Shown here piece by piece: positions 7,214 to 9,872 of a stretch of DNA of 64,000 nt. Within the stretch, counting starts at the first letter, position 1. Each line of letters opens with the position of its first letter. Source of the stretch: Candidatus Magasanikiibacteriota bacterium (GTDB taxonomy: Bacteria; Patescibacteriota; Patescibacteriia; Magasanikbacterales; UBA922); the NCBI GenBank assembly GCA_018650645.1, contig JABIFP010000027.1:24379-88378 (forward strand), given 5' to 3'. The position numbers and the translations under genes were made by a program. A model generated the notes under the pieces. That model made no database searches and was not told where the DNA came from. It saw only the letters and a program-made list of their open reading frames with translations.

Positions 7214-7284
7214 TCGGAGATCGTCTAATGGTAGGACTCTAGGTTTTGATCCTAGCTATCGGGGTTCGAATCCCTGTCTCCGAG
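7214..7284 (+). tRNA. tRNA-Gln (anticodon UUG)
   Basis: TCGGAGATCGTCTAATGGTAGGACTCTAGGTTTTGATCCTAGCTATCGGGGTTCGAATCCCTGTCTCCGAG. The cloverleaf folds, with a U1-A72 acceptor pair and anticodon loop UUUUGAU. Confidence 0.8.
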
Positions 7285-7426
7285 CGAATAAAAAAGCTCT
7301 GCTTTTTTATTTGAGAGGTGCAGGAGATGAGAACCTTTAGGTTCGACCGCCTAGTGGAGCGAGTCAAGAGGGTAGTTCTATCCTTTTGTGAGCGAAGTGC
7401 CGGTGGAACGAGGGCGTAGCCCGAGT

Positions 7427-7443
7427 AATCCCTGTCTCCGAGC
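7427..7443 (+). repeat. exact 17-bp direct repeat of the tRNA-Gln 3' end (AATCCCTGTCTCCGAGC), first copy at 7269-7285
   Basis: Identical 17-mer found 158 bp downstream of the tRNA 3' end. A palindromic terminator-like AAAAAAGCTCTGCTTTTTT lies in between. Confidence 0.8.
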
Positions 7444-7510
7444 AAGCAGTATTGATGTGATAAGAATAATCACGTATACTACTGCCAGCGCATATGCGCA
7501 ACCATACCAT

Positions 7511-7931
7511 TCGACGGTAGCTCAGTGGTAGAGCAGTTGGCTGTATCCAACATGTAAGTCGAAGTGAAAACCGTCATGTTTCCACCTTCATCGGTGGGGC
7601 AGGGCAAGCTACGACTGCAAAAATGCAGCCCTCAACAGGAATGTTGAGGTGAATAACGAGGTGAACTGCTGGAAGCCCTCTATTGATGCAAATCAATCGG
7701 GTAATCAGCAGCCAAGCCCCACGCACTTTTTCTTTATTGATGTGTGGGGAAGGTTCAGAGACTATCCCTTGCGGGAGTACTCTCCACATTTGTGGAGGGG
7801 AAGCGCCTCGCACCCGGCCGTCCCTTTCCAAGAGAAGGGTTATGACGAGGGTGATGATATAGTCCACGCTTCAGTGAGAATTGAAGATTGCGTGTAACCA
7901 ATTGGTCGCGAGTTCGAATCTCGCCCGTCGA
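7511..7931 (+). tRNA. tRNA-Asn (anticodon GUU) interrupted by a group I intron in the anticodon loop (exons 7511-7544 and 7895-7931)
   Basis: Joined exons give TCGACGGTAGCTCAGTGGTAGAGCAGTTGGCTGT|TAACCAATTGGTCGCGAGTTCGAATCTCGCCCGTCGAG. This is nearly identical in D-arm and anticodon arm to bacterial tRNA-Asn (e.g. GGCTGTTAACC). The 7-bp acceptor stem is TCGACGG/CCGTCGA. Confidence 0.8.
7545..7894 (+). ncRNA. group I self-splicing intron (tRNA-Leu/IC3-like core) inserted between anticodon positions 35 and 36
   Basis: 5' exon ends in U and the intron ends in G. Conserved R element GGTTCAGAGACTA at 7752-7764 and S element GATATAGTCC at about 7855-7866. CTTGCGGGAG follows R, as in the Anabaena tRNA-Leu intron. 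An 8-bp P2-like hairpin CCTCAACA-GGAA-TGTTGAGG follows a candidate internal guide GCAGCC. Confidence 0.7.
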
Positions 7932-7933
7932 GC

Positions 7934-7970
7934 AAAAAAAACGAAGCCTAGGTTTGGCTTCGTTTTTTTG
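7934..7970 (+). terminator. rho-independent terminator after tRNA-Asn (AACGAAGCC-TAGGTTT-GGCTTCGTT followed by a T-run)
   Basis: Perfect 9-bp stem flanked by an A8 run and a T7 run. Confidence 0.75.
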
Positions 7971-8307
7971 TTTTATTTCAGCCAAAAGTGAGTGGTAATT
8001 ACAGCTTGTATATGATTGCATTTCCATCTATGTATGGTTTTTGTAGGTTTTTTTATGAAAAAAAACCTTACACGAACAGTGGATAACATGATTGACAGAA
8101 CTGCTTTTTTCTGATACATTAGGCCGTTAGTTTGTTTTTTATGTCGAGGATCCCCGCCTTCTTTTGGTTTATTTTAGCGTAAATAACCCGAAAGAAGGCT
8201 GTGAATTTCCTCCAGTCATTGCGGTGTCTGTTTGACAATGGCAGTAATATGCTCGACATGGGGTCGGGTGTAGAGCTGTTTGTCGGCAGATGCAAGGATG
8301 AGAGAAG

Positions 8308-8880
8308 ATGGACAAGCTAATCACGGCCAACCAGATCTTCGAGCTCCTCGGAGAGAACAAGCTCGGGCGCATTACCCGGGATCAACTGCAGGCGTTTTTG
8401 ATGTACCCTCTGGGCTGGAGGAACACCGGCGAGATCATCGAGTACGATCTCAAGCTCGGGCGCGATGCGATTAGTGCGCACGTGGCCGAAGGCAACTACG
8501 AGCACTTCGTCAGCCCTAACATCAGCACATTAGTCCACCACCTCGCCGGGCGGGGCTTTCGCACGGTGAGGTTCAAGCTTGTCCCGGGCAAGCTGTTCCA
8601 GAAACCTGAGCCGCACTTCCACTACTGCGAACGCGAGGACTTCCAGCTGTACTGCCAAGATCACCAACTCCGAGAGCCCAACGCGGCCGAGGCGACGCTG
8701 TACCCCGCCATGGACAGGCAGGTCGGGATCAAGAGCGGACCGCTGTACGCCTTCATCCACGAAGAGGATGCAATGTTCTCCGTGAGTTCTGAAGATGGCA
8801 AACGACAGCTCCTCTGGCAGAAAGCCAGCTGTACTCGTGGCTACTCTAGCGACCGGCTGTTCCTGGCCGTCTGCGTTTAG
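8308..8880 (+). CDS. hypothetical protein in GC-rich islet
   Basis: 190 aa. AGGA SD about 10 nt upstream. Balanced amino-acid composition. The antisense ORF 8530..9084 is R/G/P-rich and judged spurious. Downstream hairpin CCCCCGAC-GTA-GTCGGGGG at about 8936-8955. Confidence 0.5.
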   Translation: MDKLITANQIFELLGENKLGRITRDQLQAFLMYPLGWRNTGEIIEYDLKLGRDAISAHVAEGNYEHFVSPNISTLVHHLAGRGFRTVRFKLVPGKLFQKPEPHFHYCEREDFQLYCQDHQLREPNAAEATLYPAMDRQVGIKSGPLYAFIHEEDAMFSVSSEDGKRQLLWQKASCTRGYSSDRLFLAVCV

Positions 8881-9205
8881 TCGCTTGGGTCCTTGCGGAC
8901 TTTGCCCTCGGGCATTGGTTCCTTGGACACTTGGTTTCTTCCCCCGACGTAGTCGGGGGTCGACGCCGACCGGGCGACTACCTACACCCCGTGTGTGAAA
9001 GTTCGAAAGAACGAGTAACGCGCGGGTTTTTTCATATTCAAAAATTTTGTATAAAGAAAGAATTGTCGCTATCGCAAGCAGCATAATTTCTTTGTCACAT
9101 ATTGCAAAAAATAAAGCTACAATAAATTGCCAGGTTAATTTTCACTTTGCTACGTTAAGCAAAGAATCAAGGATTCTGTTTCGAACTACATCCAGCTGCC
9201 CGAGC

Positions 9206-9240: not shown

Positions 9241-9350
9241 TTACCTTCAATTGCTTCAACGTATTAAAGCGATATTTAGGTAGGGATCTTGCGATCCCTG
9301 ACCTCCTTTCGTCAGTTGTTGTTTGGTTCATTCAGCCAGCGGTGTTGCCG

Positions 9351-9872
9351 CTAGCCCATGCTGATGTGCATGACCAGCACCGACTCGACGTCGAAGCTGT
9401 GCGGGTGCACCAGGGGCAGGTCGGCGGCCAGGGCCGTCTTCATGATGCCGATCGCCGTGGGGATGTCCATGAGGGACTTGCCCACGATATCCACCATAGC
9501 GCTGAGCGTACCGCTGAAGCAGCAGGTGGTGAGCCCACGCTTGTCTTCGTCACGCCGGATCACGAGGCACTGGTCCTCGATCACGGCGGTGAAGCCCTGC
9601 ATGGTGCACGCACCCGGGTAGCTGCGGACGAGCTCCGCAATAGCGGCGGCGTCCTTCGGCAGGTCCTTGCCCACCTTCCGGAGGAAGGGGGCGCCGATCT
9701 CGATGATGTCGAGATCTCGGCTGTCGGCCAGGTGACCGACCTCGGCGTTCAGCATCTGGCGCGTGTAGATCAGCTGCGACTCGTAGTCGTCATGATCCGT
9801 GACGTTGCCCTGCTTGATGCCGAGAGCCTGGAGAAGCGGGTTGTTCCCGCTGGTGAAGGAAACTTCCTTCAT
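9351..9872 (-). CDS. hypothetical protein in GC-rich islet
   Basis: 173 aa with protein-like composition. The overlapping plus-strand ORF 9342..9935 is H/R/G/D-rich and judged spurious. The GC-rich block runs about 9285-9960. Confidence 0.5.
   Translation of the reverse strand: MKEVSFTSGNNPLLQALGIKQGNVTDHDDYESQLIYTRQMLNAEVGHLADSRDLDIIEIGAPFLRKVGKDLPKDAAAIAELVRSYPGACTMQGFTAVIEDQCLVIRRDEDKRGLTTCCFSGTLSAMVDIVGKSLMDIPTAIGIMKTALAADLPLVHPHSFDVESVLVMHISMG

Follow-up and report, generated by a model that had tools for sequence, protein, structure and literature searches.

The number of intron classes known from tRNA genes was raised from the four classical ones to 21 (Williams, 2020, bioRxiv 10.1101/2020.01.27.920355), and the class with its insertion at 35/36 of tRNA-Asn is the 'Asn.4Ug' of that work, as it is cited by Nakagawa et al. 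(2026, mSystems, PMC13011429). Of 95 complete Patescibacterial genomes, 15 had tRNA-Asn(GUU) introns at 35/36 in the work of the latter authors, who also demonstrated in vitro that Patescibacterial tRNA-Asn introns self-splice at precisely this site (Nakagawa et al., 2026, PMC13011429). Among 28 introns at 35/36 in that work, 19 were from Patescibacteria and 25 were classed as IA, and four tRNA-Asn introns carried HNH genes; IC introns, which dominate in other phyla, were absent from Patescibacterial tRNA genes (Nakagawa et al., 2026, PMC13011429).

A locus of this kind was analyzed in a stretch of 64,000 nucleotides, the whole of which is called the window here. Positions 7511-7932 (+) of the window are a tRNA-Asn(GUU) gene that is split after U35 by a 350-nt group I intron (Table 1). 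Default ARAGORN reported tRNA-Lys, tRNA-Gln and tRNA-Glu only in the window and missed tRNA-Asn. The preliminary description of this DNA had proposed a tRNA search with intron detection; ARAGORN, run with introns allowed, placed tRNA-Asn(gtt) at 7511-7933 and a 350-nt intron following position 35 of the anticodon loop. The joined exons formed a perfect cloverleaf in ARAGORN, with U1-A72 and discriminator G73, and so rebuilt the bacterial tRNA-Asn that had been described. The gene end given earlier, 7931, is the last base of the acceptor stem but not the end of the gene, as the discriminator G is 7932. The 3' exon has no encoded CCA.

Table 1. Features of the split tRNA-Asn gene and its flanks (window coordinates)
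Feature	Position	Strand	Remarks and evidence
Promoter-like site, TTGATG, 17 nt, TATACT	7452-7480	+	Consensus scan, 9/12 matches; pattern match only, putative function
tRNA-Asn 5' exon	7511-7544	+	Acceptor 5' strand, D arm, anticodon stem 5' strand, C32 U33 G34 U35; ARAGORN
P1 5' strand, CUGU/AU (slash, splice site)	7541-7546	+	Pairs with 7623-7628; contains 5' splice site after U7544
Group I intron, 350 nt, without ORF, IA-type architecture as judged from structure	7545-7894	+	Rfam, homologues, covariation
P1 extension	7547-7622	+	Long imperfect hairpin, cap CCACC-UUCAUC-GGUGG
Internal guide sequence (AU GCAGC), P1 3' strand	7623-7629	+	G115 C116 A117 G118 (7625-7628) invariant in 48
P2, 8-bp hairpin, GNRA loop (GGAA)	7630-7649	+	8/8 pairs with compensatory changes; loop G and A invariant
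P3 5' strand, CGAGGUG	7657-7663	+	Pairs with 7804-7810
P4-P5-P5a-P6-P6a domain	7666-7753	+	All standard pairs
P4	7666-7671 with 7706-7711	+	Covaries in homologues
P5	7675-7678 with 7699-7702	+	Covaries in homologues
P5a, GCAA loop	7682-7697	+	Standard pairs
P6 and P6a	7712-7753	+	P6a covaries in homologues
P7 5' strand in R element (G, bulged A7759, GACUA)	7758-7764	+	Pairs with 7860-7865; pseudoknot with P3
P7.1, UCCC-UUGC-GGGA	7765-7776	+	Insertion relative to Rfam consensus
P7.2	7780-7799	+	7/7 counted pairs with compensatory changes
P3 3' strand, CGCCUCG	7804-7810	+	Standard pairs, covariation
P8 with inner hairpin	7811-7853	+	Base: 4/5 pairs changed on both sides, 95% of cells pair
S element GAUAUAGUCC, J8/7 and P7 3' strand (7860-7865)	7856-7865	+	Sequence, Rfam, pair counts
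P9.0	7866-7867 with 7892-7893	+	CG to UA, AU to GC; pairs in 100% of cells
P9 hairpin, GAGA loop	7869-7886	+	Standard pairs
Omega-G	7894	+	Terminal intron base, invariant
tRNA-Asn 3' exon	7895-7932	+	U36 A37 A38, anticodon stem 3' strand, variable loop, T arm, acceptor 3' strand; ARAGORN
Terminator-like hairpin, 14-bp stem, then T run	7935-7969	+	Putative function

The gene order at the locus was Mur-ligase-family (folC-like), divIC, PPIase, ftsE, ftsX, tRNA-Gln and tRNA-Asn, followed further along by DUF3179, thioredoxin, dsbD and dnaE, and identical DNA (100%) was found in five other marine metagenome samples (JGI, ENA, Logan). When GTDB species representatives were searched with FtsX, 38 loci were obtained, every one of them in Patescibacterial MAGs or in MAGs syntenic with them, and the best FtsX match, 59% identical, was from a Candidatus Magasanikbacteria MAG. 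Judged from these comparisons, the host is a marine, uncultured Patescibacterium close to Candidatus Magasanikbacteria. Several of the MAGs (L018, L025-L028, L032, L037, L042, L045 and L046) are titled 'uncultured Gammaproteobacteria bacterium', with FtsX proteins 43-58% identical to that of the window, and most of them share the tRNA order of the Magasanikbacteria loci; these titles look like taxonomic mislabels of Patescibacteria bins.

In most of the related loci ftsX was followed by tRNA-Gln, with tRNA-Asn downstream, as in the window. A homologous split tRNA-Asn gene was present in 7 of the 38 loci (L019, L020, L022, L035, L039, L045 and L033, the last cut by a contig end) and an intron-less tRNA-Asn gene in 4 of the 38 (L031, L032, L041 and L043), so that, within the lineage, this locus exists in alleles with and without the intron. 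Compared with the tRNA-Asn genes that lack the intron in L032 and L043, both of which adjoin tRNA-Gln, the joined exons of the window were identical at 65 of 72 positions (90%), and the first 35 nt, from the 5' exon on, showed 100% or 97% identity to the exons of the homologues. An nhmmer profile made from the window and six relatives matched all seven (E 1e-88 to 1e-108) and also the contig-cut relative (E 4e-40). The homologous introns aligned throughout the core, and the nearest relatives found were about 68-76% identical, over the core only.

These exon comparisons also bear on a different origin of the locus, in which two unrelated tRNA fragments would flank a free-standing ribozyme or a mobile element, for example an IStron-like insertion. 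A duplicated tRNA end does exist nearby, the 3' end of tRNA-Gln being repeated at 7427-7443. However, the two halves together make up an acceptor stem of seven perfect pairs and an anticodon stem of five; the exons are homologous to intact tRNA-Asn genes, where unrelated halves had been named beforehand as grounds for giving up the split-gene reading; the same split gene with the same boundaries was found in at least 80 related sequences; and no TnpB or other family-matching ORF was present in or adjoining the intron. We consider such an origin next to impossible, and treat the two exons as parts of one tRNA-Asn gene.

The split gene is bracketed by the promoter-like element, about 30 nt upstream, and the terminator-like element, both of which would serve its transcription. 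The repeat of tRNA-Gln comprises its last 17 nt (AATCCCTGTCTCCGAG and one base; 7269-7285), which recur exactly 158 nt downstream, within the 225-nt spacer that precedes tRNA-Asn. The spacer and the tRNA-Gln duplication are missing from the related Magasanikbacteria loci, and the repeat resembles an att-type scar, as left by an integrated element that was small or has decayed. The duplicate may also account for a weak match to Rfam RtT at 7306-7444, which, with 19.6 bits against a gathering score of 45, was not significant. No duplicate of the tRNA-Asn 3' end, as would be expected of an island att site, was found in the 64-kb window. Directly downstream of the tRNA-Asn terminator lie two islands of 58-67% G+C (8300-9000 and 9300-9850) in a genome of about 42% G+C. 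Each island holds an orphan protein-like ORF (8308-8880 + and 9351-9872 -, respectively) together with an opposite-strand shadow ORF, and the strand chosen by public gene calls varies between assemblies. Searches of the islands against Pfam and Rfam gave no match, and they contained no tRNA-Asn att repeat; their ORFs may be horizontally acquired genes.

The group I covariance model of Rfam, Intron_gpI (RF00028), a search likewise proposed beforehand, gave a significant match at 7609-7886 (+), scoring 83.7 bits where the gathering score is 50 (E 7.8e-20). The alignment spanned the full model (1-253), and this was the sole Intron_gpI match in the window at the gathering threshold. The U before the 5' splice site (U-1, 7544) and the terminal G of the intron (omega-G, 7894; alignment column G384), to which the preliminary description had drawn attention, were both present and invariant in 48 of 48 aligned sequences. 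The R, S, guide and P2 landmarks it had named could be located as well: the R element GGTTCAGAGACTA stood exactly at 7752-7764, the S element GATATAGTCC, placed earlier at about 7855-7866, was read at 7856-7865 and thus differed by one base at most, the internal guide GCAGCC was at 7625-7630, and the 8-bp P2 hairpin was present with its GGAA loop.

The intron had been described as free of a homing endonuclease ORF, and the mechanical ORFs that overlap it (7649-7897 +, 7574-7867 - and 7755-8027 -) indeed had no Pfam match. Public gene calls on the same DNA (e.g. L007 1313-1585) place a 90-aa ORF without a family match at window 7755-8027 (-), where it overlies the 3' half of the intron, the 3' exon and the terminator; this ORF is almost certainly spurious. 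Several independent metagenome contigs of this organism (L002-L006) end at the equivalents of window positions 7240, 7353, 7731 and 7767, that is, within tRNA-Gln or within the intron beside the conserved P7 core. These ends are consistent with assembly-graph breaks at sequence common to other Patescibacteria in the same samples; an example of a co-occurring relative is L238 from sample 3300024259, which has a 566-nt tRNA-Asn intron.

The secondary structure of the precursor was drawn from the Rfam alignment, the window sequence and the homologues. It comprised 20 helices, and all 107 proposed base pairs, those of the tRNA stems included, were standard pairs. A failure of P3-P7 to fold around the R and S elements had been considered in advance as evidence against a group I intron; all core helices formed from standard pairs. 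P7 is the presumed guanosine-binding helix. Tetraloop-receptor contacts are known from solved group I structures, and the conserved GNRA loops L2 and L9 probably form them here too.

Subgroup IA is defined by additional helices located between P7 and the P3 3' strand, and phage IA introns, such as T4 td and those of Staphylococcus phage Twort, carry P7.1 and P7.2 at this place. In the window intron, this place is taken by 39 nt (7765-7803) with two hairpins, and the Rfam consensus treats a 43-nt stretch holding P7.1 and P7.2 as an insertion. The segment after the R element had been likened to that of the cyanobacterial IC3 intron. This likeness has to be abandoned, as the segment is the P7.1 hairpin followed by P7.2, and the compact arrangement of IC3 is not seen. 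The presence of both P7.1 and P7.2 therefore points to an IA-type intron and not to IC3, an assignment made from the structure.

We analyzed covariation in a MAFFT alignment of 48 non-redundant ORF-less members, onto which the window structure was mapped with explicit pair counts. The data showed standard pairs in 89.4% of cells across the 48 homologues, compared with 36.9-45.1% when partners were slid. Cells changed on both sides numbered 847 (173-283 in the slid controls), the covariation score was 0.404 (at most 0.113 in the slid controls), and none of 500 shuffles reached any of the observed covariation measures. Many compensatory changes were seen in P2, P3, P6a, P7.2, P8, P9.0 and the tRNA stems, and others in P4. 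In P3, 4 of 7 pairs were changed on both sides and 98.8% of cells paired, while the tRNA stems paired in 99-100% of cells across the 48 homologues.

P1 (CUGU/GCAG), P7 and P7.1 were without variation in the 48 sequences. P7 has no covariation support of its own because it never varies, and the invariance of P7 and P7.1 in the metagenome rows arises partly by construction, since the search pattern contained that motif. The GTDB rows, which were found through FtsX, showed the same P7/P7.1 sequences, and the 7 GTDB and window rows are independent of the pattern. As a whole, the predicted group I helices are supported by covariation across the 48 homologous introns. Rfam, ARAGORN, pairing and covariation thus agree with the central reading of the preliminary description, an ORF-less group I intron in tRNA-Asn(GUU) at 35/36, and we think it very probable that the tRNA-Asn(GUU) gene of this Patescibacterium is split at 35/36 by an ORF-less 350-nt intron of IA type.

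The boundaries of the intron can also be set two bases upstream. The gene would then be tRNA-Thr(UGU), interrupted at 33/34 by the same intron, with U7542 as the last base of the 5' exon and G7892 as that of the intron; this placement, too, has a U before the 5' splice site and a G at the end of the intron, its cloverleaf was accepted by ARAGORN as Thr(tgt), and many homologues were labelled Thr(tgt) by the same program. The structure of P1 speaks against it. The pairing of CUGU (7541-7544) with GCAG (7625-7628) was invariant in 48 of 48 sequences, with a Watson-Crick pair at U33-A7627 and the wobble at U35.G7625 (U7544.G7625). The exons point the same way, as they are 90% identical to the relatives' intron-less tRNA-Asn genes adjoining tRNA-Gln, whereas only 46-52 of 72 positions matched the relatives' tRNA-Thr(CGU), which begins GCC. 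The pattern of bacterial tRNA-Asn is U1-A72 with G73, which also argues against Thr. Moreover, the ligated product of a homologous intron, when sequenced, had the 35/36 junction, and the Thr call is a known two-base misannotation (Nakagawa et al., 2026, PMC13011429). The Thr(UGU) boundaries at 33/34 were rejected on the grounds of the P1 wobble, the exon homology and the published assay, and we regard them as extremely unlikely. The two-base misannotation of Asn as Thr was seen in L022, L035, L045 and about 43 metagenome loci; the window itself was called correctly.

With the boundaries at 35/36, a route of splicing can be proposed. Transcription of the precursor would probably start at the gene's own promoter and stop at the terminator (7935-7969), and the intron would fold into the group I core. 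The guide GCAG (7625-7628) would pair with C32 U33 G34 U35, placing U35 at the 5' splice site in a U.G wobble; recognition of C32-U35 by the guide is proposed because the P1 pairing is invariant. Free guanosine bound in P7 would then attack after U7544, after which the terminal G7894 would replace the guanosine and the freed 3'-OH of U35 would join U36 (7895). This guanosine-initiated two-step transesterification is assumed because it is the established chemistry of group I introns. The products would be a mature 72-nt tRNA-Asn, with the junction ...GGCUGUUAACC..., and the free intron. No convincing P10 pairing was found in the structure, and the anticodon stem, rather than a P10 helix, would probably hold the exons together. 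Splicing at 35/36 is proposed because homologues splice there in vitro (Nakagawa et al., 2026, PMC13011429), and on this analogy we infer that the window intron is spliced.

A minimum-energy fold of the 5' part of the precursor (7536-7660) recovered P1 (-41.3 kcal/mol, z -3.4), and in this structure the P1 extension folded as a long hairpin. The extension, which is the only local peculiarity of this intron, puts 80 nt between the 5' splice site and the guide, the second-longest distance among the 52 ORF-less homologues in the matches listed. An alternative fold that hides the guide in a local hairpin (7615-7619 with 7624-7628) was about 1.1 kcal/mol less stable than the P1 fold; misfolding is conceivable because the two folds are nearly equal in stability. 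The Rfam alignment itself used a GACUGC/GCAGCC hairpin at this place. As a candidate for the true P1, this local mimic (GACUGC with GCAGCC) was rejected, being 1.1 kcal/mol worse, and it is the exon-guide P1 that appears in the minimum-energy fold.

The unusually long P1 extension and the near-isoenergetic competing hairpin would also fit a decayed intron that no longer splices, in which case the split gene would be a tRNA pseudogene and another tRNA-Asn gene would serve the cell; the genome in view is the 64-kb window only. However, every core helix is intact, the family-invariant U-1, GCAG, R, S and omega-G are all kept, the tRNA exons are without defect, and genomes rarely hold intron-bearing and intron-less copies for the same anticodon (Nakagawa et al., 2026, PMC13011429). 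Decay of this kind is in our view very unlikely, and a functional intron in a functional tRNA-Asn gene is the reading that we retain.

The family of this intron was followed in metagenomes with the invariant P7/P7.1 core motif, a scan that returned at least 120 stretches. Among the matches listed, 74 of 120 were tRNA genes of the same class, with the junctions CTGT/...G/TAA (slashes, splice sites), and most of these 74 were labelled Thr(tgt) at 33/34 by ARAGORN. The tRNA-Asn gene and its 35/36 site had been called an uncommon host and site in the preliminary description. In view of these numbers and of the published class, that judgement does not stand; it failed because it was based on the old list of four classes. 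A group of long members (27 of the 74, among the matches listed) measured 549-677 nt, with the 5' splice site and the guide 305-348 nt apart. Of these 27, 25 had as their longest ORF, in the P1 loop, a recognisable member of one protein family of about 100 aa; when three such ORFs were checked against Pfam, two passed the HNH cut-off (PF01844) and one was just below it. In the three long loci examined (L187 153-461, L238 11599-11904 and L203 2065-2394), the last codons of the ORF extend into the guide and P2, and in these three members, as far as the sequences tell, coding and ribozyme functions overlap. A scan of viral contigs with the P7/P7.1 motif GGTTCAGAGACTATCCC...GGGAGTA also gave at least 120 matches. 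The blastn comparison detected no similarity to annotated phage records or introns.

The P1 extension of the window intron occupies the position at which these relatives hold the HNH endonuclease ORF. A decayed HNH gene was rejected as its origin, as tblastn with 27 ORFs from the relatives' long introns against the precursor gave matches at chance level, the best of which (E 0.008) came from a spurious ORF. A repeated mini-element was rejected too, no second copy being present in the 64-kb window, and blastn found no similarity to the extension in relatives. Loss of an endonuclease may have left the extension behind as a scar, or the hairpin may be peripheral and neutral; a regulatory function, though possible, is unsupported. 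On a structural model in which the extension, through the competing fold that hides the guide, makes splicing conditional, it would gate the supply of what is probably the sole tRNA-Asn in an organism with few protein regulators, an idea to which we give an outside chance.

The main value of the locus is for annotation. Default tRNA finders overlook the gene, public calls set a spurious 90-aa ORF in its place, and intron-aware finders often label its relatives tRNA-Thr(UGU). Because the gene is missed or mislabelled, a genome bin would seem to be without tRNA-Asn. The locus adds one marine Magasanikbacteria-like lineage to the published pattern of IA introns at 35/36 in Patescibacteria; the arrangement has already been described and shown to splice in this phylum, and the present example opens no new question.

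The described systems differ in how closely they resemble the window intron. The cyanobacterial and plastid tRNA-Leu(UAA) intron (IC3) is also small, ORF-less and self-splicing, is also located in a tRNA anticodon loop, and has the same core elements recognized by the Rfam model, R (GGUUCAGAGACUA-like) and S (GAUAUAGUC). However, it is inserted in a different tRNA at 34/35, whereas the window intron is at 35/36, and IC3 introns, as described, are set apart by the lack of P7.1 and P7.2, both of which the window intron has. Phage IA introns have P7.1 and P7.2 in common with the window intron, and the P7/P7.1 motif is frequent in viral contigs, but its bearers there are mostly outside tRNA genes (116 of 119 among the matches listed), whereas the motif of the window is inside tRNA-Asn. 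The Patescibacterial tRNA-Asn 35/36 class is like the window intron in host gene, anticodon, insertion point, phylum, U-1 and omega-G. It has the same IA-type core with P7.1, most of its members are without an ORF, the longer ones carrying an HNH endonuclease, and it shows the same two-base Asn/Thr ambiguity in gene finders. The window intron differs from the published members in not being among the published examples, in its 80-nt structured P1 extension, and in its marine lineage, in which FtsX reaches no more than 59% identity to that of any GTDB representative. In every feature of the published tRNA-Asn(GUU) 35/36 class of Patescibacteria that could be compared at the level of sequence, the window intron agrees with that class, to which we assign it.
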